Part shown: positions 3,068 to 57,639 of the stretch, one piece after another | Layout: each line of letters opens with the position of its first letter | How positions within the stretch are numbered: the stretch's first letter is position 1 | Origin: Candidatus Uhrbacteria bacterium | Lineage (GTDB): Bacteria > Patescibacteriota > Patescibacteriia > UBA9934 | DNA: 64,000 nucleotides | Assembly: GCA_018673485.1 (NCBI GenBank) | Contig: JABHCP010000007.1 | Location: forward strand, 9,890 to 73,889 | Direction of reading: 5' to 3' | Notes under the pieces: model-generated | Seen by the model: only the letters and a program-made list of their open reading frames with translations | What the model was told of the DNA's origin: nothing | Databases searched by the model: none | Made by a program: the position numbers and the translations under genes

Positions 3068-3081
3068 GTGTTTTCATTATC

Positions 3082-3110
3082 GAGAAGATCTCTCCTCGAC
3101 GTCGAGATGG
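3082..3110 (+). repeat. short GC-rich repeat module (GAGAAGATCTCTCC-N6-CGTCGAGATGG)
   Basis: 28/29 identical to the right half of the element inserted in the O-antigen ligase gene at 10208..10270 (reverse orientation). Confidence 0.5.
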
Positions 3111-3152
3111 TAATTATTTATCCATTTCGATGCACCGAAGAAATCCTCTAAC

Positions 3153-6111: not shown

Positions 6112-7262
6112 CTTAAACTCCGATTGCTAGCAACGCGCCTATAACAAGCGAGTAACTAATATAAATAATTGTTTCCATATATACACCTCCTAGATTATCA
6201 ATTTCTTAATCTCCTAGCAGGGGTCCCAGGGTTCGACAGATGTCTATTACCTGGGAGTGATGTTGATGCGGCGGACACTTCCGTCCTTGCACCTAGTCAC
6301 TACGACCTTCGGCTTTGCGGCATGATCCGACGCCCTCGCCTGCTGCCGAAGCTTGGCAGGGGAGGTCGTGAACCACACACGCTGGCCCCGAAGAGGCCCG
6401 CACTGACTGGTATCCATAGTATCTCCATGTCAGGGTTGAACAGATTGTATTTCAGGGAACTGGGTCTCTCCTTTCCCAGTTCCCTGGAATAAATCCAGGG
6501 ATCTCTCAGTCTTTTCACAGACAGGTTGATGATTATATTCATAACCCTCCAGATGAACCGTCTCTGTCTCTATATAGCTGCCGAGGCAGCGGTGGTTATC
6601 AGCCGTTCACAACAGGGGTCGAGGTTTTGACGAATCCTCCAGACTCTCATCTGAACGCGCATGGGGGAATACGTCCAGGTGAGAATCAAGTGGATATTGA
6701 AATTGGATCGGGAGAGGAGCTACTGAGAGTGGCTCCTCCCCCGAAACACGATCGTACCTTGGTGAACCTCCGTTTGGACTATGGGGCTCACCAATGACCT
6801 ATCATACCCTCACCAGTACCTATCGCATGCGTTAGCACGCGATACCTAAATGGCTGGCGACAGGTGATATCGGTCTAATGACACTTCAAACTCGATACGT
6901 TAGGACGCAACCGCTGTGTCCAGCAGCAATCTGAATCGAGCTCAAATGGGACATGTCACCTTCCGCAAAACTGCGGTTCCCAGGAATATGGTGTGGTAAA
7001 TCACCTCTCCCTTGTCATCCCTCTGACAAGCTAAAGGAATGGCAAGGATGGTGATTTTTGTTGTTAAGTGCTCACTTGAGGAATCTGCCTCATCAGCGAA
7101 CAAGGAAATCTATCATATCTATCAGAATCTGTCAAGCCCTTGATGTACAAAAAAGGTCATATTTGGGCATAATTGGCTAAAATTAAACAAAAAAAGAACC
7201 AATTTTCATCGGTTCTCCCTGTATAGTTTCAGCTTTATACTTTCAACTTTCTATCCTCCCCC

Positions 7263-9853: not shown

Positions 9854-9982
9854 TGTCACCCCTGGCTCCGACCAGGGGCCCATCAATTATCGATTCATTG
9901 AGCTTGATGTAACGATGGATCCCCCGCCTACCGGCAGGCAGGCTGCTTTCGACCCGTCTGACGGGTTTCGCAGGAATGACAA
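9854..9982 (+). repeat. about 130-nt structured intergenic repeat (copy 1) carrying a nested CCGG-centred palindromic module
   Basis: near-identical to 62653..62775 apart from a 24-nt insert CCCCCGCCTACCGGCAGGCAGG; compensatory hairpins CCCCTGG/CAGGGG versus CCCGGC/GCCGGG. Confidence 0.6.
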
Positions 9983-9988: not shown

Positions 9989-11305
9989 ATGACCACGATT
10001 CTTCTAATCATCCTCTTCATCCTTTTCGCACTTTTAGCCAAGCGTAACCTTAAAGCTGCGCTTATTTTGTTATCTGGACTGTTGCCAATATATCTACTTA
10101 GGATCGAGATTGGACCGATACCCTCAACCACGCTCGAAGTATTGATCTTGATTTGTGCTGTTGCCTGGATCATGAACCTTATCCGTCATCCTGATTCCCA
10201 CACCTCACCATCTCGACGTCTAGGAGAGATCTTCTCAAACAAGAAGACTTCTCACTTCGCTCGAAGTGGGGGCATTAAATGGATTCGACCAACCCTACTA
10301 CTCATTGCCGCAGCTAGTTTCGGGGTCGTCGTTGCACCAGACCTTTTTGGAGCACTTGGAATCTGGAAAGCATACTTCATCGAACCAATTCTCGTTGCAA
10401 TAATGATGCTAACGACCTTTAATCGACGTGACTGGACTCGAGCACTGCAAGCTTTGAGTGTTTCAGCGATCGTACTTTCGATATTCGCCATCGTTCAATA
10501 CTGCACCGGCACCGGAATCCCAACTCCATGGGACATAGAGCTTCGAGTGACAAGCTTTTTCGACTACCCCAACGCACTCGGCCTATTCCTAGCACCAATA
10601 GTGTCATTGAATCTTATCTTGTCATTCCTGCGAAAGCAGGAATCCATCATTTTTCGATCGATCTCGATCGTAACAATCATCCTCGGCCTCACAGCAATCA
10701 TCCTCTCCCAAACCGAAGCAGCACTCGTTGCCATCCCAGCCGCCGTGATAATCACACTACTCATTTCAGAAATTTCAAAAAAATCTAAAGTTATTCTACT
10801 GGTCCTATCGGTCCTACTGGTCGCATGCTCACTACTCATCCCTACAGTCCGCGAAAAACTAACCCTCCAAGACTACTCAGGACAAGTTCGAATCTCACAA
10901 TGGACTGAAACGCTCGAGCTCATTAAAGACAAACCATTCTTTGGCGCTGGACTAAACGGATACCCAACAGCGCTCACGCCATATCACAACTCAACACTCT
11001 ACGAAATCTTCCAGTACCCTCACAACATAATCCTAAACACCTGGACCGAACTCGGACTCCTCGGCCTAATCGCATTATTCTGGTTTGCATATCTAATCCT
11101 AAAACAAACCATCTCGACGCCCAGGAGAGATTCTCTCAAGAAGACTTCTCCTGACGTCGAAGTGGGTATACTACAACTCGCCCTCTTTGCAGCACTCCTC
11201 ACGATCCTCATCCACGGCCTGGTCGATGTCCCCTATTTCAAAAACGACCTTGCAGTCATGACATGGATACTGTTCGCTGGATACATCGCCATTAAAAGAA
11301 AATGA
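9989..11305 (+). CDS. O-antigen ligase/polymerase family membrane protein (Wzy_C domain)
   Basis: 438 aa polytopic protein; C-terminal block GAGLNGYPTALTPYHNS...HNIILNTWTELGLLGLI typical of Wzy_C. Confidence 0.75.
   Translation: MTTILLIILFILFALLAKRNLKAALILLSGLLPIYLLRIEIGPIPSTTLEVLILICAVAWIMNLIRHPDSHTSPSRRLGEIFSNKKTSHFARSGGIKWIRPTLLLIAAASFGVVVAPDLFGALGIWKAYFIEPILVAIMMLTTFNRRDWTRALQALSVSAIVLSIFAIVQYCTGTGIPTPWDIELRVTSFFDYPNALGLFLAPIVSLNLILSFLRKQESIIFRSISIVTIILGLTAIILSQTEAALVAIPAAVIITLLISEISKKSKVILLVLSVLLVACSLLIPTVREKLTLQDYSGQVRISQWTETLELIKDKPFFGAGLNGYPTALTPYHNSTLYEIFQYPHNIILNTWTELGLLGLIALFWFAYLILKQTISTPRRDSLKKTSPDVEVGILQLALFAALLTILIHGLVDVPYFKNDLAVMTWILFAGYIAIKRK
10208..10270 (-). mobile_element. 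63-bp MITE-like GC-rich element inserted in frame in the O-antigen ligase ORF
   Basis: imperfect TIRs CCCACTTCGA / TCGAGATGG; internal half 28/29 identical to the intergenic copy at 3082..3110; encodes the extra peptide SPSRRLGEIFSNKKTSHFARSGG. Confidence 0.5.
11109..11166 (-). mobile_element. 58-bp MITE-like element, second in-frame copy in the same ORF
   Basis: same termini and internal GAGAAGTCTTCTTG core as 10208..10270; encodes TPRRDSLKKTSPDVEVG. Confidence 0.5.
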
Positions 11306-11345
11306 ACCAACAGCCTTGACAAAAGGCTGTTTTGGGTTTAAATAG

Positions 11346-12146
11346 ATGCGTCCACTCTTGGGCCCCAACAACGGAGAGCACATGACAATTCGCCCCCTCC
11401 CCTGCGCTGATGACAACGTGAAAGCATTGGTATCACCCTTCAAACTGAGTGAGGTGGTAGTCACCTCGCCTGATGATCGCCGGCGAGCCGTTGAGTACAT
11501 GGCCTTCTGGTTTGGCCAGGACGAGCACATGAACCAGTTCTTTGGAGCCCTATGCAAACATGGAACTCCGGAACAGCAAGCGTCTGCACGTCGCGCCATC
11601 TTTGACATCTTCCTCGACGACGCACTCAAGTGCGCCTACCTGCGTAGCTTGGACGGTGAACGCACCGCATGCGAAAGCTGGTGGACGTACATGTACCCAA
11701 AAACGATCCGCGAAGACCTTGAAGAAACTGCTCAGCAAGTAGCTCGTGGATTCGAAGCTATCGGCTGGGCCAAACTCTTCTACGGTTTCCAGGTACTGAT
11801 GGCTGTCAAAAACCACGCTGTACCCAAAATTGATGGAGCGATGATCCCGCACCTTCAACTCAGCAATATCGCAACCGTTGAGGACCTCCGTGGAAGAAAG
11901 CACGCGACAGCTCACATCGTAGCGGTCTGCCGCGTCGCTGATGACCTCAACCTGCCAATTGCGCTGTGCTATGCGCGCCCCGACAATGCCACGTTTTACG
12001 CGAAGTTTGGATTCGAGGACAAGGAACGCATTCCAAAGCTGCCTGACAAATGCCCGTTCTACAACTGGATGTTGCGCATACCAGAGTCGGGACCAGGTGG
12101 TCACACAATGCACATCTGGCGAGCACGCAGACTCCTGCAAGCCTAG
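11346..12146 (+). CDS. hypothetical protein, possibly GNAT-fold, in a high-GC cassette
   Basis: 266 aa; C-terminal NATFYAKFGFED resembles the GNAT motif; about 57% GC; flanked by a promoter-hairpin and a terminator repeat. Confidence 0.45.
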   Translation: MRPLLGPNNGEHMTIRPLPCADDNVKALVSPFKLSEVVVTSPDDRRRAVEYMAFWFGQDEHMNQFFGALCKHGTPEQQASARRAIFDIFLDDALKCAYLRSLDGERTACESWWTYMYPKTIREDLEETAQQVARGFEAIGWAKLFYGFQVLMAVKNHAVPKIDGAMIPHLQLSNIATVEDLRGRKHATAHIVAVCRVADDLNLPIALCYARPDNATFYAKFGFEDKERIPKLPDKCPFYNWMLRIPESGPGGHTMHIWRARRLLQA

Positions 12147-12336
12147 CGACAACAGTGCAGCCCCTTAACCCGCCAAACTCGGCGGGTTTCACGCTTGCAA
12201 TATTAGTTAGTTGCGCCTAAATCCTCTACTTTTTTCACAAAACTCCCCTAGAGACAGTAGCCTTGACAAAAGGCTGTTTTTTATATAATCTTTCGAGTGG
12301 ATTTAACTTCAAGCCACGATACCCCCGAGGTGAAAC

Positions 12337-12738
12337 ATGAGTCGCAGCTTCGCAGAAGTCCGCCAAGCGGCACCACCGATCCACGCCTTTGTGCCGGCGC
12401 ACAAAACCTTAGTGGATAAAATGATGGGCACCGTGACTGGCGACAAAGTCACGATCCTCGAGCCCAACACCATCGACGAACAGTATAGCGACACGCCTTT
12501 CGGTAGTGATGCTGCTACGAGCTATGTCGCGGGTGACGGCAATCGCAAAACCCCATACACCCTCAAAAGTGCGGCGCCAATGTCTGCACACTACGGTATG
12601 GTTGGCCTATGGTGGCTCTTCCAACTCAGCCTGCGCTCATGCAAGCGTCCGGTGTACATCAAGGTCAACGATTGGATCTTCGAGATCACTCCCGAAGGCG
12701 TCATCGCCCTCGACGGTACACTCACGAAGCTCATCTGA
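12337..12738 (+). CDS. hypothetical protein in a high-GC cassette
   Basis: 133 aa; preceded by the same AGCCTTGACAAAAGGCTGTTTT element and followed by the same GCGGGTTTCAC-CTTGCAA-ATTAGTTA terminator repeat as the previous ORF. Confidence 0.45.
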   Translation: MSRSFAEVRQAAPPIHAFVPAHKTLVDKMMGTVTGDKVTILEPNTIDEQYSDTPFGSDAATSYVAGDGNRKTPYTLKSAAPMSAHYGMVGLWWLFQLSLRSCKRPVYIKVNDWIFEITPEGVIALDGTLTKLI

Positions 12739-12879
12739 GCTACTCTCTCGTTGAACCCGCAAGGACCTTTCGTGACCCGCCTCACCAGGCGGGTTTCACT
12801 CTTGCAAAATTAGTTAAGCCAACTCCTTTCTCCAACTAAGCTCACCTGATATAATAGTTTCATAAATTAATCACGCACT

Positions 12880-13824
12880 ATGTTAGCATTTTGGATTGTC
12901 GTCTTTATCGTATCGTTGGCCGTAATGGTCAAGGGTGCTGACTGGCTTATTGCCAGCTCTGAGAAAATTGGTTTGTCCTTTGGACTATCTCCTTTCATTG
13001 TTGGTGTAACCATTGTTGGTTTGGGAACATCGTTTCCTGAGCTTGTTTCGTCTTTTGTTGCGGTCATGCAGGGCGCAACAGAGATCGTAACTGCAAACGC
13101 GGTGGGGTCCAACATCGCCAACATCTTACTTGTCATTGGATTTGCTGCAGTAATTGGTAGGCGTCTTACAGTTACAAAAAACTTAATTGACCTAGACCTT
13201 CCATTGCTTGCAATCGGAACCGTGCTATTAATTGGAGTCGTGTTTGACGGACAGGTAACACTTGGTGAAGCAATTCTATTGGTTGTTACTTACGGAATCT
13301 ATTTGCTTTACACAATTATTCACACAGAAGAGGAGGAAGAGGGTCAAAAGAAAAAGAAGAAAGCAAAACGACCAAAGGTTACTATCAAAGACATCGTTCT
13401 GCTAATCATTGGAATAGCCGGCTTGGTACTTGGAGCAAAATATCTAATCGATTCACTAGTGAATCTTTCCACCATGTTAAATGTTGCAACTGGTGTGATT
13501 GCAATTACAGCTGTTGCGATTGGTACGTCCCTGCCAGAGCTACTAGTATCTGTAAAAGCAGCTCGCGCTGGAAAGCCGGAGGTCGCGCTTGGAAACATTT
13601 TTGGATCTAACATCTTTAATGCCTTCATGGTAATCGGACTCCCTGGACTAATGGGAACACTAATGATTGATGACATGACCTTAATGATTGGAGTCCCAAC
13701 CATGGCGCTCGCAACACTATTATTCGTGATCTCCGGAATCTCACGAAGAATCTACATGTGGGAAGGAGCGTTCTACCTAGCACTCTACGTTCTATTTATT
13801 GCGAAACTATTTAACTGGTTCTAG
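12880..13824 (+). CDS. Na+/Ca2+ exchanger family (CaCA, YrbG-like) antiporter
   Basis: two alpha-repeats GTSFPELVSS and GTSLPELLVS with an acidic linker; 314 aa. Confidence 0.85.
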   Translation: MLAFWIVVFIVSLAVMVKGADWLIASSEKIGLSFGLSPFIVGVTIVGLGTSFPELVSSFVAVMQGATEIVTANAVGSNIANILLVIGFAAVIGRRLTVTKNLIDLDLPLLAIGTVLLIGVVFDGQVTLGEAILLVVTYGIYLLYTIIHTEEEEEGQKKKKKAKRPKVTIKDIVLLIIGIAGLVLGAKYLIDSLVNLSTMLNVATGVIAITAVAIGTSLPELLVSVKAARAGKPEVALGNIFGSNIFNAFMVIGLPGLMGTLMIDDMTLMIGVPTMALATLLFVISGISRRIYMWEGAFYLALYVLFIAKLFNWF

Positions 13825-13933
13825 ACTGAAATACTGAACGAACATAAAACGACCTGTGCAGAGCATGGGTCGTTTTCGCTTCCACCACGCAGAGCACTTT
13901 GATATAATAAAACCACTTAAACCCCCAAATTTT

Positions 13934-16949: not shown

Positions 16950-17618
16950 CTATTCTTCCCCGAAGTCACGACTCCAGTGCCAGTCGAGATATTTGTCACC
17001 TGTCCGGAACTGGATCCACTTGTTGGAAATCGAGAACATCACCTTGTGCTCTGTGGTATGTATACGACCTGGAACACCAAGCGCTGCGTAACGCCCATTG
17101 GCATTCGTAGGCTTGAGCTGCTCGGCAGTGTAGTGCCACTCGGCGTGTCCACGAGCATCGACTCGTGTATCTGGGAACACGAGGTGACAGCGCTCACCAG
17201 GGTTGAGCACATAACTCTCCTGACCGCTATCCATGACAACACGGTCAGTACCCTGGTGCGCCACGACTGTAGTCTGGCCATCAGGCATCTGCGCGAGCAT
17301 CGGCATGGCTTTCCACACACTGACCGGGAAACCATCGATACTGAAGCGGATCGGCGCAGGGGTGTCGTTCGTGAACGTCGCCTCGAACCATCCTTGGGCT
17401 GCGTTGGGTGGCAATCCACCGATGTAACACTTGCCTGGGACGACCTCACGAGCATCGATCATAGGCGAATACGGACTCGAATGGGTTTGCGTTGCAACGG
17501 TCTGCCGTTGTACGTCCTGTCGTTGCGTCTGCTGCTGCACCGGGGGTGGAGCATGGCGAGAGTGAGGACCCGCAAAGGTAGTAGCGGCCAACAAGACAAT
17601 GCACGTGAGATGACTCAT
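16950..17618 (-). CDS. secreted hypothetical protein in a high-GC island
   Basis: signal peptide MSHLTCIVLLAATTFAGP; about 60% GC; opposite-strand ORFs are Arg-rich antisense artefacts. Confidence 0.5.
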   Translation of the reverse strand: MSHLTCIVLLAATTFAGPHSRHAPPPVQQQTQRQDVQRQTVATQTHSSPYSPMIDAREVVPGKCYIGGLPPNAAQGWFEATFTNDTPAPIRFSIDGFPVSVWKAMPMLAQMPDGQTTVVAHQGTDRVVMDSGQESYVLNPGERCHLVFPDTRVDARGHAEWHYTAEQLKPTNANGRYAALGVPGRIHTTEHKVMFSISNKWIQFRTGDKYLDWHWSRDFGEE

Positions 17619-17621
17619 GAT

Positions 17622-18272
17622 CTACTCCCCCTCGAGGATGTCTGTGAGGACTTCCTCGGCTGAGTCAGCACGCGCCTGCTGGGCGTCGGCCTCCTTTTGG
17701 GCCTTCTCGCGTTGCAGCTTCAGTGCCTCGATTTGGCTTGCTTGCCGTTGCGTCGTCGCTTCGAGCTCTGCGGCCTCAGCCTCGGCTGCGGCCTGGAGTT
17801 GTTGCGCACCCTGGACCTCAGTACTACGACCATCGGCCCACATCTGAGTAGAGATAATCGACGCTTCGCTGTCGATGATCTGCAAATCGCGTGTGAGCAT
17901 CGGCGGAAGATAGGCACCATACGGATCGTGATACTGATCGTACAGACTGTAGTACTGATCGTACGGATCGCTATACATGTCAGGAGGCGGCGGCACATAG
18001 GTCGGGCCAACCTGAAGGTGGAGACCTCCGCGCACGCGCGGGGTGGAACCACGGTTGTACGCTCGGCGGCGGCTCGGCTCGATCTGCACGTGCAACTGAG
18101 CGGACTGTCCGCTGCACTGGTACCAGCCGTCGCTGTTGCGATAGTCAGGCACCTGGATGGTGCGCATGTCCACGCAATTGCCGTTGCGGTAATCGTAGCA
18201 GACCTGCTTGCAGGAATCTGCGTAGGCGGGGTTCAGGCTCATGGTGAGAACGAGGGCGATCAGGAAGTTCAT
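17622..18272 (-). CDS. secreted hypothetical protein with C-terminal coiled coil in a high-GC island
   Basis: start taken at MNFLIALVLTMSLNPAYA (signal peptide); Cys-rich N-terminal part; Q/A/E-rich coiled coil. Confidence 0.5.
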   Translation of the reverse strand: MNFLIALVLTMSLNPAYADSCKQVCYDYRNGNCVDMRTIQVPDYRNSDGWYQCSGQSAQLHVQIEPSRRRAYNRGSTPRVRGGLHLQVGPTYVPPPPDMYSDPYDQYYSLYDQYHDPYGAYLPPMLTRDLQIIDSEASIISTQMWADGRSTEVQGAQQLQAAAEAEAAELEATTQRQASQIEALKLQREKAQKEADAQQARADSAEEVLTDILEGE

Positions 18273-18542
18273 GACTTCTCCGGGGGTGATAGGACGGGAA
18301 AATTCACTACAAAAGCGCTTATGCTGGCGCTCTGCAGACATGTTAAATTATCATGAAAAACTCATTCGGTCAATACAAAGCCATGCCTCATTGAACTAAT
18401 CAGTCACGACTACCCCAAACCTAGCCTAGTATTCCTGATTGACAATTATGCGAACTTTTGCTAAATTAAACCGTCTTGATCTACTCGTCTTTGGGACGAA
18501 TCAAGTATCCGTCCCCTCAAAAACCACACACAGGAGTGACCC

Positions 18543-20165
18543 ATGTCACCACCGATCACAAAAGCAGAAGTTCTAGCAACGTTTGGCGATGTTGGCTTTG
18601 CCACGATCCGTGAGCAACTGCAAAGCGCAATCGGCAACAGCGATGTCTCCCTCCTCTTGAACCAAACCGGCCTTCGCGCAAAGCTAGCCAAAGCGGCCAT
18701 GGAGCATCCGCAAGGTGCTGCTGTTGGCATTGATGTTTTGACAACTCTTGTTGGCAGAATGGCCAGCCACTACAACCCCTTGCTTGGAAAGACAGTTGAT
18801 GAGCTGGGTGAAGGTGTAGCCTACGGGCTCCGTGATCTAGCTCAAGAAGCTCGAAATGGCACAGCTATCACCGCTGGCAACGTCGAAACTGCCCTGCAAC
18901 AGGCTGACAAAACCATGGCGGTCATCAAAGAACAGCGCAGCGCAAAACTCGCTGAACTCCATGTTGGGCAGCGTCGCGCATTCTTTGCCCTTCTGCTCGC
19001 CAGCCGAGAAGAAGAGCACTTTGACAATACGCCCGCTTGGGCGCTTGACCCGCTTGCAGCACGCCGAAGGCGCCATGGCCAACGTGGATTCCGCGGACTC
19101 GAAGGTCGCGCGTTTCAGACTGAGGCTGGACTGCTCTGGTTGCTCGAAACCGACATCGAAATGCTCAAGCAAGTCCTGCCAAGCGACAAGAGCTTTGACC
19201 AGGTGTACTACTACCCTTCGCGCTGCTGCCAAGAGGCAATCACCGCGGCTACGACCTGCAAGTCTATGCCAATGCAAAAGGCGCTTGACGTCATCGACCT
19301 GATGGTCGACAAAGAAGACCTCAAGCAAAGAGCTGGCAGAACTGCTGGTTGGATCCTAGACACTGCGCGCAGTGCGGCAACCACTGCTCTGATCGCTTAT
19401 CCAGTGTTCATGATCGTCATGTTCGCGCTCTTCTTTACCGCAGCAATCATCTTCTTGGTATGCCACGCAACGCTCCTATTTGCCCCCACTGCGCCGACCT
19501 GGGCTGTTGTAACGATAATCCTGGCCTACCTTGCCTTGCTGCTCTTCCGCTACACATTTACGTTGGTGGACACATTCCATGCCTTTGTTGGCTGGCTTGT
19601 GCAACGGCTTGATGTGACGCGTGAAGATGCGCTCGTAGGCACGATCGCACGTGGCCTCTTGGGCATCTTTGGTAAAGAAGACTTGCTCAAACAGACTCCG
19701 CGTGGAGAAAAGAGGGAATACTCATGGGCAGTCCACTTTGCTGGAACGGCGTTCATCGCCGCAACAGCACTTGCCGCCCTGACCGTACTCCACTACTTTA
19801 TGGGACGAGGTATTGGCCCAGCGTTCATCATCATCCTCACAGAGCTCCTCATCCTCCTAGCAGTTGAGCTCCCACGACGAATGTCAGCCCTGATCCCGCA
19901 TAGCGACAAGATCCAGGACGCCCGTTGGATGCGGAAATGGGTGACGCGTGGTGCTGTAACACTCATCGTTCTGACGGCCATCATCTCGATTGTGGGCTGG
20001 AACACTACCAGCTGGCTCGTGAGCCAAGTTCGCTCAGAACAGGTCACGAATCCAGCCGAAGCTGGTGCTCCAGAGCACAGCTCACCTAAGCTCGAGCGCG
20101 CCTGCGCGCACTGTCGCGAACACGATGGTTGCAGCGACGTGCTCAAGGCCAAGTGTGGTCTCTAG
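18543..20165 (+). CDS. hypothetical membrane protein (soluble N-terminal domain plus about 6 TM) in a high-GC island
   Basis: 540 aa; promoter-like TTGACA-17-TAAATT upstream at about 18435. Confidence 0.55.
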   Translation: MSPPITKAEVLATFGDVGFATIREQLQSAIGNSDVSLLLNQTGLRAKLAKAAMEHPQGAAVGIDVLTTLVGRMASHYNPLLGKTVDELGEGVAYGLRDLAQEARNGTAITAGNVETALQQADKTMAVIKEQRSAKLAELHVGQRRAFFALLLASREEEHFDNTPAWALDPLAARRRRHGQRGFRGLEGRAFQTEAGLLWLLETDIEMLKQVLPSDKSFDQVYYYPSRCCQEAITAATTCKSMPMQKALDVIDLMVDKEDLKQRAGRTAGWILDTARSAATTALIAYPVFMIVMFALFFTAAIIFLVCHATLLFAPTAPTWAVVTIILAYLALLLFRYTFTLVDTFHAFVGWLVQRLDVTREDALVGTIARGLLGIFGKEDLLKQTPRGEKREYSWAVHFAGTAFIAATALAALTVLHYFMGRGIGPAFIIILTELLILLAVELPRRMSALIPHSDKIQDARWMRKWVTRGAVTLIVLTAIISIVGWNTTSWLVSQVRSEQVTNPAEAGAPEHSSPKLERACAHCREHDGCSDVLKAKCGL

Positions 20166-20393: not shown

Positions 20394-20774
20394 CTAACCA
20401 GCGAGGCCTGCAGTGGTCAGTGACGTAATCACGAAGTTTGAAATCGCGTACGCTGCCAAAAGGATAATTAATCCGATTACAGCATTGATCATGATGTCCT
20501 TTGCCTTTTGAGTCTTGTCTGACTCACCACCGGCTGTCATCCACAAGAATCCTGCGTAGATAACAAGAACTAGCAAGATGATTCCCAATAGAGTAAGGAA
20601 AACTTTGATCAGGTCTCCGATCGTCGCGGCAAGTGGCTCGTCTGAGAACTCTGCAGCTAAAGCTGCACTATCAAGCTCAGTACTAATGTCCTGTGCGTGA
20701 ACTGGTGCTGCAAGCATTGGAACTGACAACAGTCCGATTGCGAGCAATGCGCCTAGTTTTTTGAGATATCCCAT
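20394..20774 (-). CDS. TrbC/VirB2-family pilin-like protein (paralog 1)
   Basis: Sec signal ending AHAQ; two C-terminal TM helices with the loop IYAGFLWMTAGGESDKTQKAKD. Confidence 0.7.
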   Translation of the reverse strand: MGYLKKLGALLAIGLLSVPMLAAPVHAQDISTELDSAALAAEFSDEPLAATIGDLIKVFLTLLGIILLVLVIYAGFLWMTAGGESDKTQKAKDIMINAVIGLIILLAAYAISNFVITSLTTAGLAG

Positions 20775-20836
20775 AGTAATAAATTAATAACTCTTTTAAT
20801 TAGTAATCTTATTTTAACATTTTTTGTAATCCTACG

Positions 20837-21190
20837 CTATATAGCCAACTGTATAGAATCGATAACGAAATTCGAAATTGCATACGCTGCCAATAGGATA
20901 ATTAGTCCAATCACGGCATTGATCATGAAATCTTTTGCCTTCTTAGTCTTATCCGTCTCACCACCAGCTGTCATCCACAGGAATCCTGCGTAGATCATTA
21001 TCAACAATAATATTATACCGAGTATCGAAAGCGCAACACCGATTATACCACCAATCATTACTGGCAAAGTAGCCTCTGAGAACCCGACTTGACCCTGCGC
21101 ATCGTCAACTTGGCTAGTGAAATCAAGCGCCCAAACAGTCACGGGGCTCGCCAGCACCAAACAAACAATTGAAAAAACTAACTTCTTCAT
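20837..21190 (-). CDS. TrbC/VirB2-family pilin-like protein (paralog 2)
   Basis: start taken at MKKLVFS; IYAGFLWMTAGGETDKTKKAKD loop. Confidence 0.7.
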   Translation of the reverse strand: MKKLVFSIVCLVLASPVTVWALDFTSQVDDAQGQVGFSEATLPVMIGGIIGVALSILGIILLLIMIYAGFLWMTAGGETDKTKKAKDFMINAVIGLIILLAAYAISNFVIDSIQLAI

Positions 21191-21555
21191 AATGATGGGG
21201 CGTTGAGCGCTGTAAAGATGTATGTCGTAATGGCGTATGCTGCTGTGATAATTATTACACCGATCACAGCACGAATCATTAAGTCTTTTGCTTTTTGAAC
21301 TTGATCGGAGGCTCCACCGGCTGTCATCCATAGGAATCCCGCGTATACCATCAGTACCAAAAAGATCAGACCAACGAGCGCTAATGCTGGGGTAATAATC
21401 TTAGTTCCAACCCATTGACCAAGAGTTTGATCAAGAGTTCCATAAACCTCGGCACCTGTAGCATCCAAGCCAGTTTCGGATGGATCTAGCTGCGCAAAGA
21501 CAAGTGTGGGGCCAAGAAGCAGCGCAACGGCTGCAAGGGCGATGTATTTTCGCAT
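21187..21555 (-). CDS. TrbC/VirB2-family pilin-like protein (paralog 3)
   Basis: start taken at MRKYIAL; VYAGFLWMTAGGASDQVQKAKD loop. Confidence 0.7.
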   Translation of the reverse strand: MRKYIALAAVALLLGPTLVFAQLDPSETGLDATGAEVYGTLDQTLGQWVGTKIITPALALVGLIFLVLMVYAGFLWMTAGGASDQVQKAKDLMIRAVIGVIIITAAYAITTYIFTALNAPSL

Positions 21556-21601
21556 AGCCAAGTGCCAGCACGTATGTGCTGGCAAAAGGTCATAAGAAAA
21601 T

Positions 21602-22006
21602 TTAACCAGCTGAGGCGGTAATCACGGAATCGATCACAAAACTTGTAATCGCAAACGCTGACAAGATAATCGCCAGTCCGATAACACCAGCAATTAAGAG
21701 TCGTTTCGCTTCCGAGACTTTGTCTTCGTTTCCACTTGCTGTCATCCACTTAAATCCACCCAAGAGAACCATTACTACTGCAATAATTCCAAGGAATCCA
21801 AGGAAAACGCGAATAAGATTCCCAATAGTCTCTTTTAGGTTGGCTTGTCCGAGCCCTGAACTATCTGAAAAATCGTCATCAAAGAAATCTGAAGTATCAA
21901 GTTGCTGTGCGTGAGCAACAGGAACGTTTGTAGCGAAAGTCATTGTTCCCAACAGAGGGATCGCTACTAAGAAACTAAGTGCGAATAGTGATAGCGCTTT
22001 TGTCAT
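21602..22006 (-). CDS. TrbC/VirB2-family pilin-like protein (paralog 4)
   Basis: signal peptide; LLGGFKWMTASGNEDKVSEAKR loop. Confidence 0.65.
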   Translation of the reverse strand: MTKALSLFALSFLVAIPLLGTMTFATNVPVAHAQQLDTSDFFDDDFSDSSGLGQANLKETIGNLIRVFLGFLGIIAVVMVLLGGFKWMTASGNEDKVSEAKRLLIAGVIGLAIILSAFAITSFVIDSVITASAG

Positions 22007-22058
22007 AGTGTTTTATGATTAATAATATTAAATAGTTGAATCGCTCGATTATATCTCG

Positions 22059-22126
22059 CTTGTTGAAGATGTTTAAGTTGTTTATTTCAGAGTAAACACT
22101 TTAAACACCTTCAACAATTTAAACAT
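22059..22126. promoter_or_regulatory. conserved upstream element, copy 2
   Basis: shares the GTTTAYTTCRGARTAAACACTTTAAACA core with 16841..16889. Confidence 0.5.
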
Positions 22127-22132
22127 CAGCTC

Positions 22133-22468
22133 TTAGACGCTTCCAGTCAGAACTGCGCTGAAGATTGCGTCTGTTAAAACATACGCTCCAGCAATCAGGA
22201 TGATCCCCAGAGTCGCCCAAACCAAAATGTCCTTTCCCTTTTTCACCTGATCTCCTTTTCCCATGTCTGTAAGCCACAGGATGCCACCATATACAAACAT
22301 CAGAAGCGCCAATGTTCCGGCAACGGACAATGCGCCGCTAATAACTGTTCCGATGATCACTCGTACATCGTTCTCACCCAAAGGATTAGTAAGAGTGACC
22401 TGAGCTTGTGCTATATATGGCATAGCCAGCGCTCCTACACTCACGATAATAGCCTTAATCTTTTTCAT
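22133..22468 (-). CDS. TrbC/VirB2-family pilin-like protein (paralog 5)
   Basis: signal peptide AQAQ; VYGGILWLTDMGKGDQVKKGKD loop. Confidence 0.65.
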   Translation of the reverse strand: MKKIKAIIVSVGALAMPYIAQAQVTLTNPLGENDVRVIIGTVISGALSVAGTLALLMFVYGGILWLTDMGKGDQVKKGKDILVWATLGIILIAGAYVLTDAIFSAVLTGSV

Positions 22469-22491
22469 AGAAATATTATATCAAGATTTTT

Positions 22492-22992
22492 CTATTGCGT
22501 CTGAATGATATCCGCAGCCCCGGCGCCATCTACTGCATTATCGATTGTATCTTCAATATCCGTCGTTGGAATCTCTCCAGTTGTAATAACAGAAACGACA
22601 ACGTTAATAACGGCATATGCACCCATAATAATCGCCAATCCCACCAAGGCTCCGATAATCGCCTTCTTTCCTTCGTCCACCATTCCAGCTTCACCATGGG
22701 CTAGAATCCACTTCATACCTCCATAAACTAAAATGAACATCATCACAGAACCAGTGATTCCAAAGATGAAAACGCTCAAATTAACTAAAAGCTGCATCAT
22801 GTCCTCGAGCGTACACTTACCATGGTCTCTGCATTCGCACGCTGCACTCGCGCTTGAACAAATACCGGCAAAGATAAGTCCCTGATCTTGAATCTCGGCA
22901 TACCTACCTGCGATTGATTGAGCCTGAACACTAGGCACAAAAACACCCAGCATCGCAAAGGACAATAAAAATGTTAATGCATACTTTTTCAT
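22492..22992 (-). CDS. TrbC/VirB2-family pilin-like protein with Cys-rich insert (paralog 6)
   Basis: signal peptide VQAQ; CSSASAACECRDHGKC insert; VYGGMKWILAHGEAGMVDEGKK loop. Confidence 0.6.
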   Translation of the reverse strand: MKKYALTFLLSFAMLGVFVPSVQAQSIAGRYAEIQDQGLIFAGICSSASAACECRDHGKCTLEDMMQLLVNLSVFIFGITGSVMMFILVYGGMKWILAHGEAGMVDEGKKAIIGALVGLAIIMGAYAVINVVVSVITTGEIPTTDIEDTIDNAVDGAGAADIIQTQ

Positions 22993-27227: not shown

Positions 27228-27267
27228 CGGTTTCACTAATTGAACGATCGTTCAATTAGTGAAACCG
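27228..27267. repeat. 40-bp perfect palindrome centred on CGATCG
   Basis: CGGTTTCACTAATTGAACGATCGTTCAATTAGTGAAACCG, 3' of iscS. Confidence 0.8.
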
Positions 27268-27285
27268 TCCGATCTTCGTAATATG

Positions 27286-28498: not shown

Positions 28499-28538
28499 AT
28501 GTTTCACATATTGGACGATCGTCAACATTGTGAAACAT
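28499..28538. repeat. 40-bp near-palindrome centred on CGATCG (GTTTCAC arms)
   Basis: ATGTTTCACATATTGGACGATCGTCAACATTGTGAAACAT immediately 5' of iscS; shares GTTTCAC...GTGAAAC arms with 27228..27267. Confidence 0.7.
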
Positions 28539-28718
28539 TTCAAATAAGCTAACTGTCTTCTTTAATGGCCTAGGATATGTGTTTTTATGCCTTCTGTCAA
28601 CAATTCTACCACGGAGCGTGTTGGTTGACAGTTTGTCACTTTTTAGCTAATCTAATCAGCCGTTCCTACGTATTTCGCCCCATTAACCACCGCTGCGCTA
28701 TATGCGCTGAGGATACCC

Positions 28719-29417
28719 ATGTCCGAACCCGCCACCACACGTCAAGAACTTATAATCAAGATCCTGCGACTCGAAGCTGACAATGCTCGCCTGCAGGCTG
28801 AACTCGAGACTGCTAAGATCCGCATCCAGGAGCTCGAAGCTGAGCATGCACCGGAGATGTGCGCCGAGTACGACATCTGTACCCTCTCCAAGCCCATCGA
28901 GGAGTTAGTGCTTTCGAAACGCGTGAAAAAACTTCTCCGGTTTGGCTTCTATGACATGCCTGATGGTTCCATGGTATACATCTGGCAACTCATTGAAAAA
29001 ACTGAGGCCGAGGTACTCCATATCCGCGGCTTGGGGCGCAAGAGCTTTGGTCAAATCAAAGTGGAGCTAGCCGAACTCGGACTCAGCCTTGGCATGGGAT
29101 GCCCGGACGAGATCAAGGCCCAGCTCCCCCACCCCGACTTCAGTGCAAAAATGATCGAAAATCTCTCCCGTACGTGGGATGATATCGAGCTCTCGATTCG
29201 CGCAGCGAACTGCTTCAATCTCCACAGCATCTGGTACGTCTGGGAGTTCGTCGAGTACACCGACAAGAGGGCGCTTGCAGAGATCAAGAACTTCGGACGC
29301 GGGACGCTCAACGAGCTCAAGGAAATCCTCGAAGAGCTCGGGCTAGAGCTCAACACGAAAATACCACTCGAGGTCAGAACCCGGCTACCACAGGACAATC
29401 CGTACCTCAGGCACTAG
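28719..29417 (+). CDS. stand-alone protein with N-terminal coiled coil and two RNA polymerase alpha-CTD-like domains
   Basis: IELSIRAANCF and ELGLSLGMG blocks match the rpoA C-terminal domain (LELTVRSANCL...SRGLSLGM) twice; about 58% GC. Confidence 0.6.
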   Translation: MSEPATTRQELIIKILRLEADNARLQAELETAKIRIQELEAEHAPEMCAEYDICTLSKPIEELVLSKRVKKLLRFGFYDMPDGSMVYIWQLIEKTEAEVLHIRGLGRKSFGQIKVELAELGLSLGMGCPDEIKAQLPHPDFSAKMIENLSRTWDDIELSIRAANCFNLHSIWYVWEFVEYTDKRALAEIKNFGRGTLNELKEILEELGLELNTKIPLEVRTRLPQDNPYLRH

Positions 29418-44239: not shown

Positions 44240-44380
44240 GCCATTGAGTAAATAAAATCAGGAGACATTCCTCCTGTTTCCGATTGCATTGTATCAAGTT
44301 ATTGCTAGTTTGATCAAAAAGGTTTCACTAAGGTCCCGATCGGCCCTTTAGTGAAACCTTCTTGACGTCGACGGCTTGGC

Positions 44381-45061: not shown

Positions 45062-45119
45062 TAAATAAAGTCTAATTTAAAAAAACAGCCAATTTTAGTT
45101 AAAAAAGCACGCTTTTATA

Positions 45120-45148
45120 TTGACAAGAGCGTGTTTTTGTGTTATATT
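45120..45148 (+). promoter_or_regulatory. sigma70-type promoter (TTGACA-17-TATATT)
   Basis: directed at the 45282 ORF, which has a GGAGG RBS. Confidence 0.45.
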
Positions 45149-45281
45149 TTGCAGTCCTGCTGAGTCTACGGACCAGCTGACAACCTTCCTTGGGCCTACC
45201 ACACAATTCGTGAGGGGGCAGCAAAGAAGGATCCTTTTTCAGGACCTACTTCGTGAAAGCGGAGGGGTTGCTGGAGAAATC

Positions 45282-45656
45282 ATGAACGATAAAGCAGACG
45301 TGATCATGTGCGCCCACCAAGGCACCTTCATGGTGTACCCTCACCCCGAAGGGCGCCTGGCACACCTCTACGAGGAAGTCACGGTCAATATCAGAGGGAA
45401 CGACTTTGTGAAGCCAAAGGTCTGGATCCTTGGTGCGTCCTGGGCCGACACGATTCTCGGAACGCACGGGACTCGTCAGGAGGTGGATACCCTCAAGCGC
45501 TTGATGCGTAGTGAGGGCATCGTATACCAGGTCACGCAAGACGAGATGGTCCCATGCTGCCAGCCTGCCCGTAAGAACAACGAGTGGGTCTGGTACGACT
45601 CTGACCGTGCCCAGCTGCGAACTGACTCGCCTTTGGCGATCTTCTTTAGCGGCTAG
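45282..45656 (+). CDS. hypothetical protein (124 aa) in a high-GC islet
   Basis: RBS GGAGG 9 nt upstream of the ATG; long GC hairpin and T-run downstream. Confidence 0.45.
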   Translation: MNDKADVIMCAHQGTFMVYPHPEGRLAHLYEEVTVNIRGNDFVKPKVWILGASWADTILGTHGTRQEVDTLKRLMRSEGIVYQVTQDEMVPCCQPARKNNEWVWYDSDRAQLRTDSPLAIFFSG

Positions 45657-45885
45657 ACTTAACAGCTTTTTTCTTCCCCCTCTCTCAACCCCCATCAAAC
45701 CTGAAGGACTCCCATGTCCAACTCACGGTTTGTGGGGGGTTCTTCTTTTATAGAAAAAATAGACAACTTACCGCTTAGATGGCCCTGTGTTTTTTTTCTA
45801 TCCATTCGATGTTCGATCGGACATTTTATGAATTTATCAAAATTGCTTTTGAGGCTGATTTAAAGACTGCGTTTAGAGATATCAA

Positions 45886-45921
45886 TTTTCATAATACGTT
45901 CGATCGAACGTATTATGAAAA
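45886..45921. repeat. 36-bp perfect palindrome centred on CGATCG
   Basis: TTTTCATAATACGTTCGATCGAACGTATTATGAAAA; a degenerate relative at 45806..45826. Confidence 0.8.
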
Positions 45922-45982
45922 TAAAGCATCAACGCCCCACTCGTTGTACGAGTTGGGGCGTAGTTGATTGCGCACGAGGGCG

Positions 45983-46666
45983 CTAGCGGGATCCTCGAGC
46001 TGATCCCCACGTTCCTTCTTTGCGTGAACTGCCGAAGATGTATTCGGGTTGGGTCTCTTCGGATATGTCTTGGATGACGACTTGGTGCCCGTCGCCTTGA
46101 AGGACCGAGCTCGCTCCAACTGGCATGATGAACTGTTGGTCGACGTCGCGGGTGATGATCATGCCCTGCGGTTCGAGCAGCGGGCTGTTCTGGTGGTTGT
46201 CCCAGATCAGCATGTCGTTGATCGTGTAGGTCTGGTCAGGTTCGAACCGACCAGAAACCTCCTCGATGATCAGCGTGCCGCCGTCGCGTTCGAAGACGCC
46301 AGTCGTGAAGCCCGTGAATGGGTGGTCGTTGTTCGCATCCTTGAAGATCGAGTTGACCCCAAAGAGCTTGGGCTGGGTCATGCCACGAAGGTGAGCACTT
46401 GAGTCACCGACATAGACTACCACCTTGTGGGCCTGTGGTGTCACAAAGAGCATGAAGTTCGGATCCTCGCAATCGGCTGAGGTGCTGGAGAGCTCTTGCT
46501 CCAGACAGGTCTCGATCGTGGCGAGAAGTTCTGCCTTTCCTGTGTCACGACCACCGTACAATGTAGCCAGGTTGACGCCGCACATGAGAAGAGCTGCGAT
46601 AACGAGTAACACCGTTAGATCAGAGACCTTCAAGGTGATTTCTTTGGAGAAGAATTTGTTTGCCAT
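45983..46666 (-). CDS. hypothetical membrane-anchored protein in a high-GC islet
   Basis: N-terminal TM anchor; 227 aa. Confidence 0.5.
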   Translation of the reverse strand: MANKFFSKEITLKVSDLTVLLVIAALLMCGVNLATLYGGRDTGKAELLATIETCLEQELSSTSADCEDPNFMLFVTPQAHKVVVYVGDSSAHLRGMTQPKLFGVNSIFKDANNDHPFTGFTTGVFERDGGTLIIEEVSGRFEPDQTYTINDMLIWDNHQNSPLLEPQGMIITRDVDQQFIMPVGASSVLQGDGHQVVIQDISEETQPEYIFGSSRKEGTWGSARGSR

Positions 46667-48258: not shown

Positions 48259-48288
48259 CAAGGTTGAACCTTTAAAGGTTCAACCTTG
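48259..48288. repeat. 30-bp perfect palindrome CAAGGTTGAACCTTTAAAGGTTCAACCTTG
   Basis: relative of 20294..20323. Confidence 0.7.
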
Positions 48289-48385
48289 GCGGTAAACCAT
48301 TGATATTATTGAGTATTTGTGATTACATGCACTTGTCGAAATCAATCGGCGAGTTTCTGGCGAGTACGTCAGATTGGGGTGAGTA

Positions 48386-48922
48386 ATGAGTGTTCCAATG
48401 ATCGGTGATAGCGGTGTGCTCCTGCAGGTTTCAACGATGAGGGCCAATGCTGTCATGCGACTTCTGAGTATGGAGTGCTTCCGTGTAGTGCCCTTCCTGA
48501 TCGATGCTCGTGAGGAGTTCCGTCCCAGCGACTGGTTTAGGACCATCGGTGAGTTCCATGAGTGGGTCATGCAGAGTTCAGAGACGCAGTTTGCTGACAA
48601 GCTCCGTGCGGCATGGGGACAGATCGAAGCGGATCTATATGCCAGAAATATCCCAGCTAACCTTGAAGTTGTGGCCAACCGCATTCGAGCGTTCAAGCTG
48701 CCTAAGGGTACGGAGCGGATTGAATGGTCCCGGGATGGCAAGAACATTGTCATTGAAATCAACGACTGGCATGACGAATTCGATAGCTTGGAACGCTTCC
48801 TGGAACTTCTTGCAAAAGATGCTTGGCGATCGAACGATGACGTACATGCGCATAGCGTCATCCGGCTCGCTCAAGAACTCCTCGCGCTCGACAACTTCCC
48901 GATCCGTAGACCTACCGACTAG
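48386..48922 (+). CDS. hypothetical protein (178 aa) in a high-GC islet
   Basis: the plus-strand ORF has a normal composition; the overlapping minus ORF is a Ser/Arg-rich artefact. Confidence 0.5.
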   Translation: MSVPMIGDSGVLLQVSTMRANAVMRLLSMECFRVVPFLIDAREEFRPSDWFRTIGEFHEWVMQSSETQFADKLRAAWGQIEADLYARNIPANLEVVANRIRAFKLPKGTERIEWSRDGKNIVIEINDWHDEFDSLERFLELLAKDAWRSNDDVHAHSVIRLAQELLALDNFPIRRPTD

Positions 48923-52672: not shown

Positions 52673-52710
52673 ATTTTCATGATAGGTTCGATCGAACCTA
52701 TCATGAAAAT
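52673..52710. repeat. 38-bp perfect palindrome centred on CGATCG
   Basis: ATTTTCATGATAGGTTCGATCGAACCTATCATGAAAAT abutting the stop codon of 52710..53252. Confidence 0.8.
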
Positions 52711-53252
52711 TATATTTCTGAAGCATGGAATATTTTCACCCAATCCGAGTTTTTAAATTTTATGCTAAAAAGCCTAGAAAGGTCGTCGCTTACATTCTTT
52801 TTGGTAGTCCAAACACTTCGGTGCATTTGCTTGAATCCGATTCGTTTTAATAGGTGTCTAATTTGTCTTCGAATTAGCTTTTGACTTTCAGGTATATCAA
52901 AAGATACAACACACAATTGGTTTGAGGGCAGATAGTTGGCGTTCATACTTTTTAATCTAAGGTATTCTTCAATCCCTTTTTCTGTAAGCGATATATAGTA
53001 TTGATCAGCGATTTTGTTTTCTAAAATAAATTTCTTTTGACGCAATTTTTTCAGTGTTTGTTTTCGGCTCCATTTTTCTTTGTTGTGCAAATACTTTCTT
53101 GCTCCGTTTATCCCAAACCTAACCACAAGACCTGGCCTAGCTAGGCCGAAGTGGAGATCGGATATTGAATTACCAATTTCAACAAGAAGATTTGATGTTC
53201 TAGAGTTAGTTATTAGTGGATATTTGTTTTCACGATGTGTTCGATCGGACAT
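52710..53252 (-). CDS. hypothetical protein with winged-HTH-like N-terminal region and Cas2/PaaX-C-like C-terminal motif
   Basis: YISLTEKGIEEYL wing; VVSFDIPESQKLIRRQIRHLLKRIGFKQMHRSVWT resembles the Cas2/PaaX_C core; gene is bracketed by CGATCG palindromes. Confidence 0.45.
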   Translation of the reverse strand: MSDRTHRENKYPLITNSRTSNLLVEIGNSISDLHFGLARPGLVVRFGINGARKYLHNKEKWSRKQTLKKLRQKKFILENKIADQYYISLTEKGIEEYLRLKSMNANYLPSNQLCVVSFDIPESQKLIRRQIRHLLKRIGFKQMHRSVWTTKKNVSDDLSRLFSIKFKNSDWVKIFHASEI

Positions 53253-53256
53253 ATCT
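53235..53256. repeat. imperfect CGATCG-centred palindrome overlapping the start codon
   Basis: GATGTGTTCGATCGGACATATC. Confidence 0.5.
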
Positions 53257-53276
53257 TGATTATTATTTATTGCGAG

Positions 53277-57614: not shown

Positions 57615-57639
57615 AGAAGATGCTCGCATTGGAATTTAA

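Follow-up and report, generated by a model that had tools for sequence, protein, structure and literature searches.

Two GC-rich single-gene units with matching candidate promoter hairpins and terminator-like repeats at a Candidatus Uhrbacteria recombination hotspot

A 64,000-nucleotide stretch of the genome of an uncultured Candidatus Uhrbacteria bacterium (contig JABHCP010000007.1, positions 9,890 to 73,889; hereafter the window) contains two open reading frames, ORF1 and ORF2, that lie in tandem between a gene for an O-antigen ligase/polymerase-like protein (Wzy) and a gene for a Na_Ca_ex antiporter. Each is preceded by the same hairpin with an embedded promoter-like sequence (motif A) and followed by the same terminator-like repeat (motif B). 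A previous sequence-only reading of this DNA had described ORF1 and ORF2 as two unrelated high-GC genes, and this description holds. The GC content of ORF1 (0.55) and ORF2 (0.56) exceeds that of the flanking genes (0.43-0.46), and so does the GC content at third codon positions (GC3: about 0.61-0.62 for ORF1 and 0.68 for ORF2; 0.41-0.49 for the flanking genes). Beyond motifs A and B, comparison of the spacers, 5′-untranslated regions (5′UTRs) and 3′UTRs of the two units with shuffled sequences revealed no similarity (p = 0.47-0.91). The arrangement is real and no assembly artefact, since the window agrees with 14 contigs that represent this strain in at least 10 samples. Thirteen of these are 100% identical to it over the overlapping parts of positions 11201-12900, and the remaining contig (L008) differs by a single base at position 12355.

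Motif A (AGCCTTGACAAAAGGCTGTTTT) is 22 nt long and occurs as exact copies at 11312-11333 and 12259-12280, as had been proposed (about 11312 and 12258). If the flanks are counted, 26 of 30 positions are identical. The window contains no further copy with three or fewer mismatches; the chance expectation for such copies is also 0 (100 shuffles). The motif forms a perfect 9-5-9 inverted repeat (AACAGCCTT/GACAA/AAGGCTGTT) that runs into a series of T residues. The hairpin of the first copy begins 3 nt past the stop codon of the Wzy gene, and that of the second has two G-U pairs where its stem begins. The -35 hexamer TTGACA had been assigned to the loop of this hairpin. The hairpin does hold the hexamer, but only part of it is looped out: the leading TT belongs to the stem, and the loop is GACAA. 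The calculated RNA folding energies are -18.1 kcal/mol for copy 1 (z -4.65) and -9.5 kcal/mol for copy 2 (z -1.9), and a terminator scan called the hairpin together with its T-run terminator-like at both copies. The plausible -10 hexamers that had been noticed downstream are present in both units (TAAATA and TAATCT), each at a spacing of 17 nt from the -35, and further on come strong Shine-Dalgarno sequences and the ATGs at 11382 and 12337. Copy 2 offers TATAAT at 12284-12289 as an alternative -10 with a spacing of 15 nt. A designed variant of motif A with swapped but still complementary stem arms is exemplified by AGGCTTGACAAAAGCCTGTT.

Between the window and L001, one of four related contigs (L001, L022, L026 and L027) that were gathered through relatives of the Na_Ca_ex antiporter, the block from motif A to the -10 of ORF1 is identical at 34 of 36 positions, compared with 20 of 28 in the adjoining 5′UTR and about 78% in the coding sequence. 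This conservation, the -10 hexamers and the recurrent completion of the stem in other genomes (see below) support the reading of motif A as a hairpin-embedded promoter of the sigma-70 type, which would function as a composite of hairpin and promoter. Among the promoter-like TTGACA sites in the window (n = 15), a long stem surrounds the -35 at motif A only. That promoters of this genome generally have a hairpin around the -35 can be ruled out, because besides motif A only one of the 15 sites has a stem, of 6 bp. This other hairpin (about 45090-45140, + strand) has the stem GCACGCT-TTTATATTGACAAG-AGCGTG followed by TTTTTGTGTTATATT and lies upstream of a GC-rich ORF.

Motif B (GGCGGGTTTCAC(G/T)CTTGCAA(T/A)ATTAGTTA) follows both ORFs at 12181-12209 and 12788-12816, again as the sequence-only reading had it, and is part of a longer direct repeat of 42 nt. 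The two copies of this repeat (B1 behind ORF1 and B2 behind ORF2) are 86% identical and 607 nt apart from start to start. Each copy consists of a 20-nt GC hairpin (7-bp stem, 6-nt loop; -16.4 and -17.1 kcal/mol, z -3.5 and -4.3) and an unstructured 23-nt tail. The hairpin without the tail is kept after ORF1 in L001 and L026; in L001, the CTTGCAAnATTAGTTA tail is absent. The sequence from B2 onward is collinear with the spacer between ORF1 and the antiporter gene in L001. These features support the view that motif B is a terminator-like hairpin of the Rho-independent type, which would belong to ORF1, together with 23 nt of downstream sequence. The window contains no third copy of motif B, and none would be expected by chance; nor was a copy found outside this locus family in 312 kb of fetched loci.

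The interval between the Wzy and Na_Ca_ex genes is a recombination hotspot, with five gene sets in five genomes. The window carries ORF1 and ORF2. L001, with an antiporter 93% identical to that of the window, contains ORF1 only. In L026 (antiporter 87% identical), we find a variant of ORF1 with 45% identity and a B-like terminator. L027 (about 80%) has a methyltransferase gene, a homologue of ORF2 and a 144-aa ORF, and L022 (80%) has a short ORF with a radical-SAM/SPASM gene, a methyltransferase gene and two ORFs. The hotspot, which the sequence-only reading had raised as one of two possibilities, is supported by these differing gene sets of five related genomes.

Alignment with L001 delimits the ORF2 unit. 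Window positions 10661-12196 align with L001 4612-6123, and window positions 12826-13832 align with L001 6161-7167. These breaks define the ORF2 unit as an indel of about 607 bp with its ends in B1 and B2. The tails of B1 and B2 are identical at 21 of 23 positions, and both have diverged from L001. The second copy of motif A (A2) shares a C with the first copy at a position where L001 has G. The likeness of the B tails and this C imply that the duplication of A and B is younger than the split between the window and L001.

The region upstream of ORF2 is of mixed ancestry, because its left part is of the ORF1 type and its right part is of the L027 type. Up to the promoter spacer, the sequence corresponds to that upstream of ORF1; the part that starts with the -10 is homologous to the promoter and 5′UTR of the ORF2 homologue in L027. 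This homologue is preceded by TTGACA-17-TAATCT and a homologous 5′UTR (35 of 54 positions identical). It is associated with neither hairpin A nor motif B, and ends in a different terminator (GCGCCCC...GGGGCGC plus T7).

A second insertion footprint is preserved in L027. The methyltransferase gene of this contig is a 742-bp single-gene insertion between 43-nt direct repeats (93% identical) of the 3′ end of the Wzy gene. It is 94% identical to the methyltransferase gene of L022, compared with 83-85% for Wzy and the flanking genes. The right junction of the insertion lies at an 11-nt microhomology (AAAAACGACCT) that is common to the native 3′ end of the methyltransferase gene and the 3′ end of Wzy. 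The two repeat copies differ from each other like two natural Wzy alleles, one being L001-like and the other window-like. This footprint suggests that single genes have repeatedly been inserted at this site with duplication of about 40 nt of target, by recombination and not through a transposase. No integrase, transposase or recombinase was found among 27 ORFs of the window that were scanned against Pfam (21 ORFs within 1-23 kb and six GC-rich ORFs further on). Most simply, the B repeat in the window is a footprint of the same kind, in which the duplicated target happened to hold the terminator of ORF1 and thereby supplied one to ORF2. Microhomology-mediated or homology-facilitated illegitimate recombination is known to accompany DNA uptake. 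The locus resembles such events in its single-gene insertions with duplicated target and in the position of the L027 junction at a microhomology. It differs in that junction microhomology could be shown for L027 only, and not for the ORF2 unit of the window.

Table 1. Positions of genes and candidate regulatory features between Wzy and the antiporter gene (window numbering, except for the last row).
Feature	Position	Strand	Details
Wzy_C (O-antigen ligase/polymerase-like) gene	9989-11305	+	Pfam PF04932, E = 2.3e-20; conserved left hotspot border; synteny with L001, L022 and L027
Motif A, copy 1	11309-11344	+	Hairpin 11309-11331 (arms 11309-11317 and 11323-11331); -35 11316-11321; T-run 11330-11333; -10 TAAATA 11339-11344
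ORF1, 254 aa	11382-12146	+	Shine-Dalgarno sequence (SD) GGAGAG 11373-11378; puromycin-N-acetyltransferase-like GNAT family
Motif B, copy 1 (B1)	12168-12209	+	ACCCGCC 12168-12174; loop AAACTC; GGCGGGT 12181-12187; TTCAC; tail GCTTGCAATATTAGTTA
Spacer between B1 and A2, 46 nt	12210-12255	+	Dissimilar to the Wzy 3′ end, to the stretch behind B2 and to all fetched loci
Motif A, copy 2 (A2)	12256-12291	+	Hairpin 12256-12278; -35 TTGACA 12263-12268; T6 run; -10 TAATCT 12286-12291
ORF2, 133 aa	12337-12738	+	SD GAGGTGA 12327-12333
Motif B, copy 2 (B2)	12775-12816	+	ACCCGCC 12775-12781; loop TCACCA; GGCGGGT 12788-12794; TTCAC; tail TCTTGCAAAATTAGTTA
Extended -10 promoter of the antiporter gene	12847-12855	+	TGATATAAT
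Na_Ca_ex antiporter gene	12880-13824	+	Pfam PF01699, E = 4e-62; right border of the hotspot; conserved synteny
43-nt repeat copies in L027	5700-5742 and 6442-6484		Flank the methyltransferase insertion

We favor, with slightly better than even confidence, the interpretation that ORF1 and ORF2 are independent, insulated accessory units at a hotspot, and that the ORF2 unit carries copied A and B motifs of the ORF1 type. In each unit, the A hairpin and its T-run would stop read-through from upstream. The same hairpin would bear the -35 of a sigma-70-type promoter with the T-run as the promoter spacer, so that transcription would restart from the very element that stopped it. The SD and the ORF follow, and motif B would then terminate transcription, which would make each unit self-sufficient. 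The ORF2 unit would thus consist of its own -10, 5′UTR and coding sequence, placed between copies of the -35/hairpin (A) and the terminator (B) of ORF1. We infer that these copies were made by recombination at the hotspot after the L001 lineage had split off, possibly through homologous exchange between short regulatory repeats, through microhomology-mediated insertion with duplication of a target of about 42 nt, or through both. One conceivable history is an insertion adjoining ORF1 that duplicated B, plus short-patch copying of A. As direct repeats, the two B copies may now permit loss or gain of the unit as a block of about 607 bp.

Several observations weigh against this interpretation. 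The A copy in L001 contains one stem mismatch and folds with -9.8 instead of -18.1 kcal/mol, which makes the -35 and the -10 better conserved than the hairpin. A strict promoter scan of positions 10800-13400 returned no sites, because TAAATA ends in A and TATAAT lies at a spacing of 15 nt. A Rho-independent terminator is a GC-rich stem-loop with a U-tract directly after it; the stem of motif B is followed by three T only, and the main B hairpin was not called in the terminator scan. The visible copies, two of A and two of B, are too few to demonstrate recurrent shuffling via either motif, and we could not reconstruct a single event that explains the duplication of A, the duplication of B and the 46-nt spacer. 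A different history also fits the data: both units could be ancestral, in which case gene conversion would have homogenized A and B, and recombination between B1 and B2 would have removed ORF2 from L001 and from L026 in independent events. The loop of B2 (TCACC) resembles that of L026, and the loop of B1 resembles that of L001, which can be fitted, post hoc, to different crossover points in such events.

Motif A is not confined to this genome. A 20-mer of the motif (AGCNTTGACAAAAGGCTGTT) has 13 exact matches in 185,579 species genomes, compared with about 4 expected at random. Eight of these genomes are Patescibacteria (WWE3, Magasanikbacteria, Saccharibacteria, Parcubacteria and Uhrbacteria), four are metagenome-assembled genomes (MAGs) labelled Gammaproteobacteria, and one is an Enterococcus. 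Metagenomes provided 15 more loci, mostly redundant with the genome matches, and viral contigs provided none. At a distance of about 17 nt, a hexamer of the -10 type follows each of the 13 genome matches; most of these hexamers conform to TA..(A/T)T, and many are preceded by TG. In 5 of 20 independent loci, the three upstream bases that were not part of the search complete the 9-bp stem (P about 1e-5). The genes downstream of the 20-mer are mutually unrelated, and in most cases their GC content exceeds that of the locus (for example, 0.54 vs 0.40, 0.57 vs 0.45 and 0.58 vs 0.44). Rfam families gave no match at or downstream of motif A in the window and 13 other loci. The 312 kb of fetched loci contain two further near-matches, with 4 mismatches each. 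Because the matches were picked by exact identity, convergence and horizontal spread of motif A are not separable.

This distribution raises the question as to whether ORF1 and ORF2 arrived with their regulatory ends. Motif A could mark a pan-Patescibacteria pool of GC-rich single-gene cassettes, each composed of an insulating terminator, a promoter, a gene and a terminator, and both genes would have brought A, and perhaps B, with them. Such cassettes would insert and excise at hotspots by recombination via their regulatory ends without a dedicated recombinase, as a cellular counterpart of the phage stem-loop promoters discussed below. The excess of 20-mer matches with eight Patescibacteria from several classes, the unrelated and mostly GC-richer ORFs downstream, the completion of the stem above chance, and about 10 other GC-rich ORFs in the window with near-consensus promoters, one of them with a different -35 hairpin, all agree with this idea. 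We nevertheless give it little credence. The ORF2 homologue in L027 has neither A nor B, motif B is confined to this locus, viral contigs, phages and plasmids contain no matches, and the fetched loci hold just the two near-matches. The search itself picked exact matches, promoters form a biased class of sequences, and convergence on a hairpin with TTGACA, a T-run and TG-n-TA..AT could produce the same pattern. Alternatively, motif A could be the palindromic operator of a dimeric transcription factor that binds over the -35. In this case, the two copies would be kept identical by selection for co-regulation of ORF1 and ORF2 and not by recent copying. A perfect 9-5-9 inverted repeat centered on the -35 is what such an operator might look like; the conservation between the window and L001 and the recurrence of the palindrome in other Patescibacteria point in the same direction. 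An operator is unlikely all the same, as the L027 orthologue of ORF2 lacks the palindrome, the G-U pairs of copy 2 suit an RNA hairpin better than a DNA operator, and the matches in Enterococcus and in Gammaproteobacteria-labelled MAGs imply no single conserved regulator. It would also leave the duplication of B and the boundaries of the indel unexplained.

Uniqueness of both motifs to this locus had been named as the sign of a simple local duplication. As described above, motif B occurs in this locus family only, and motif A, in the genome as visible, has no other copy, be it in the window or as a second locus in the metagenomes that contain this strain. The motifs are thus as local as that prediction required, yet their origin is still not a plain local duplication, which the surrounding sequence disfavors. 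If the whole ORF1 unit had been duplicated in tandem, followed by replacement of the second ORF1 by ORF2, both ends of the ORF2 unit would be of the ORF1 type in the same order and orientation, as they are. However, the spacer, the UTRs and the stretches adjoining A and B retain no residual similarity. A duplication junction would match either the 3′ end of Wzy or the sequence behind B2, but the spacer resembles neither, and an additional precise replacement event has to be invoked. We therefore consider this scenario quite improbable. The other possibility raised by the sequence-only reading, an integron-like array of site-specific cassettes with B as the recombination site, does not stand. 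Integrons contain an IntI-type tyrosine recombinase with an adjacent attI site; their cassettes are generally promoterless, are expressed from the promoter Pc, and end in attC, an imperfect palindrome of 57-141 nt with R′′, L′′, L′ and R′ boxes. The likeness lies in two tandem single-gene units, each with an imperfectly conserved, hairpin-forming repeat behind it. Against it, no integrase was detected among the 27 scanned ORFs, a 7-bp stem with a 6-nt loop has no attC architecture, the units bear their own promoter-like TTGACA-17-TAnnnN sites and SDs, the repeat is specific to this locus and present in two copies only, and of the B repeat the sister genome retains the hairpin without the tail. 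The locus departs from integrons in all three features compared, and such an array is very improbable. Mobile repeats of the miniature inverted-repeat transposable element (MITE) or repetitive extragenic palindrome (REP) type have terminal inverted repeats, target-site duplications and multiple dispersed copies. A and B do not fit this description, as they occur in two copies each, all at one locus.

The closest analogues of the A/B units would be the PeSLs (promoter early stem-loops) of T4-type phages, in which a strong sigma-70 promoter and a stem-loop terminator form one element and the stem-loop may extend over the -35 (Arbiol et al. 2010, PMC2839356). PeSLs lie upstream of ORFans in hyperplastic regions and mediate modular shuffling; they are present in about 50 copies per phage genome and are defined by promoter and terminator activity and by the formation of mini-circles (PMC2839356; for a further PeSL paper, see Comeau et al. 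2014, PMC4122927). In a similar manner, motif A would combine a sigma-70-type promoter with a stem-loop over the -35, here a 9-bp hairpin with a T-run that is known from sequence alone. Motif A also lies directly upstream of ORFans in a highly variable region, and an indel between relatives is bounded by a short repeat of predicted regulatory sequence. In contrast to PeSLs, the motifs reside in a bacterial chromosome of the Patescibacteria and not in a phage, the 64-kb window contains two copies instead of about 50 per genome, and the ends of the indel lie in the terminator-like repeat B and not in the promoter motif A. Furthermore, activities and mini-circles are established for PeSLs, whereas the promoter and terminator activities of A and B are predicted. 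A second comparison is offered by putative mobile promoters, which were defined by at least 80% identity over at least 50 nt in the region from -150 to -50 of non-paralogous genes (Matus-Garcia, Nijveen and van Passel 2012, PMC3575422). Motif A is similar in that near-identical sequence precedes non-homologous genes in one genome and is shared across distant taxa. Unlike these promoters, it spans only 22-30 nt and includes the -35, and the upstream regions are otherwise unrelated, which places it outside this definition.

Reuse and shuffling of regulatory cassettes looks, by analogy, like a process of a known kind that is seen here in a chromosome of the Patescibacteria. Horizontally acquired genes account for up to 13% of genome length in this group, and horizontal gene transfer and genomic islands are documented (PMC12455944). 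Patescibacteria have tiny, streamlined genomes, and how they insert and express single accessory genes without the machinery of mobile elements is poorly documented. The locus described here is a concrete, datable example, in which a hotspot would swap single-gene units and a newcomer would gain the terminator/promoter hairpin and the terminator of its neighbor, after which these short regulatory repeats may serve as boundaries for deletion and insertion. If this were general, composite terminator-promoter elements could be both expression kit and recombination substrate for accessory genes, like PeSLs in T4-type phages. With one locus and two copies, its value is mainly that of a lead.

ORF1 (P0001, a hypothetical protein in the annotation of Candidatus Uhrbacteria) had been suspected to be GNAT-like, and the family to which it belongs confirms this. 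There is one close homologue (P0002, 79% identity), and the family comprises 9-14 representatives among 1.8 billion proteins. A profile built from 11 members matches puromycin N-acetyltransferase (PDB 7k09) with E = 2.2e-13 as well as many other GNAT structures, and 6 of the 11 members match the Pfam models Acetyltransf_1 or Acetyltransf_7. ORF1 of the window on its own falls below the threshold for GNAT Pfam models (E = 0.079). The profile aligns to the C-terminal GNAT core of 7k09, and the proteins share an N-terminal helical region and a similar size; they differ in the acetyl-CoA motif, which is degenerate in ORF1. Judged by this profile similarity, ORF1 is, at the family level, a predicted GNAT protein closest to puromycin N-acetyltransferase. 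Some gene callers start ORF1 at ATG 11346, upstream of the predicted transcription start. The 254-aa model of NCBI, which starts at ATG 11382, therefore fits the promoter reading. A 16-nt match of contig L012 to the 5′UTR of ORF1, spotted by eye, is insignificant for the search space.

For ORF2, searches for protein families and for matches in PDB, PHROG, PADLOC, phages and viral contigs returned nothing. The sole homologue is the 131-aa protein in L027 (52% identity), which was found by reading that related locus. ORF1 and ORF2 are under purifying selection, with ratios of nonsynonymous to synonymous substitution rates (dN/dS) of 0.12 (window vs L001) and 0.16 (window vs L027), respectively, and these values indicate that both are real genes. 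AlphaFold (AF2) models have a mean confidence (pLDDT) of 34 for ORF1 and 40 for ORF2 and are unusable. The high GC3 of both genes is kept in both lineages, and the ORF1 variant of L026 reaches a GC3 of 0.82; this would fit an origin in a GC-richer source and slow amelioration thereafter. As to a phage or plasmid source, tblastn produced no match to ORF1 or ORF2 in 50,697 phage records and no match to ORF1 in 72,556 plasmid records. Viral contigs contain no match to A, B or ORF2, and neither PADLOC defence families nor PHROGs phage families are significantly similar to ORF1 or ORF2.

The order of genes around the hotspot is kept among the relatives, with TrmB, a flippase and Wzy to the left and Na_Ca_ex, an NTP-transferase and a solute-binding protein to the right. 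The labels of the last two genes (NTP_transferase and SBP_bac_1/8) come from Pfam annotation that had been precomputed for their counterparts in related contigs. Families identified among the scanned ORFs of the window are RuvB, carboxypeptidase, SpoIID, TrmB, flippase, Wzy, Na_Ca_ex, DUF134 and T4SS pilins. In L022 (4248-5959), the short ORF of the hotspot encodes 30 aa (MKKVRILNRGNRRVIVLTKESQGTMYYRAE), has a TTGACA promoter of its own and lies directly upstream of the radical-SAM/SPASM gene. The two genes form a pair that resembles those of ribosomally synthesized and post-translationally modified peptides (RiPP-like).

Elsewhere in the window, about 10 more GC-rich ORFs form small islands, including 6169-6492, 16977-20165, 28719-29417, 45120-45656, 45983-46666, 48280-48861 and 63065-63571. 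Their GC3 is 0.52-0.70 compared with 0.35-0.46 for housekeeping genes, most have no Pfam match, and several are preceded by near-consensus TTGACA-17-TAnnnT promoters. The ORF at 28719-29417 (+ strand, 232 aa) encodes a stand-alone C-terminal domain of the RNA polymerase alpha subunit (PF03118, E = 2.5e-20), and upstream of it is TTGACA-17-TAATCT, the -35 of which is covered by a small hairpin. Four T4SS-pilin paralogues (PF18895) form an array at 20394-22992 on the - strand, which contains a 222-nt repeat (20428-20649 and 20862-21083) with 73% identity.

The window also contains several repeat families. A short repeat (...CCATCTCGACG(T/C)C(T/C)AGGAGAGATC...) is found in both orientations at 3070-3111, 10196-10238, 11097-11139 and 63645-63688. 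Two copies lie within the Wzy coding sequence, and L001 is shorter than the window by about 63 nt near the first of these; this family looks like a small REP/MITE-like element that is tolerated in frame. An exact 40-nt repeat (CTGCTTTCGACCCGTCTGACGGGTTTCGCAGGAATGACAA) occurs at 9943-9982 and, 52.8 kb away, at 62736-62775, and an inverted relative (GTCATTCCTGCGAAA...) is located at 10611-10635 within the Wzy gene. Finally, two families of long intergenic palindromes are centered on CGATCG (e.g., GGTTTCACTAATTGAACGATCGTTCAATTAGTGAAACC), with copies at 27229-27269, 28500-28540 and 44321-44361, and at 45798-45922, 52673-52710, 53226-53263 and 57579-57616. These palindromes may be bidirectional terminators or operators.

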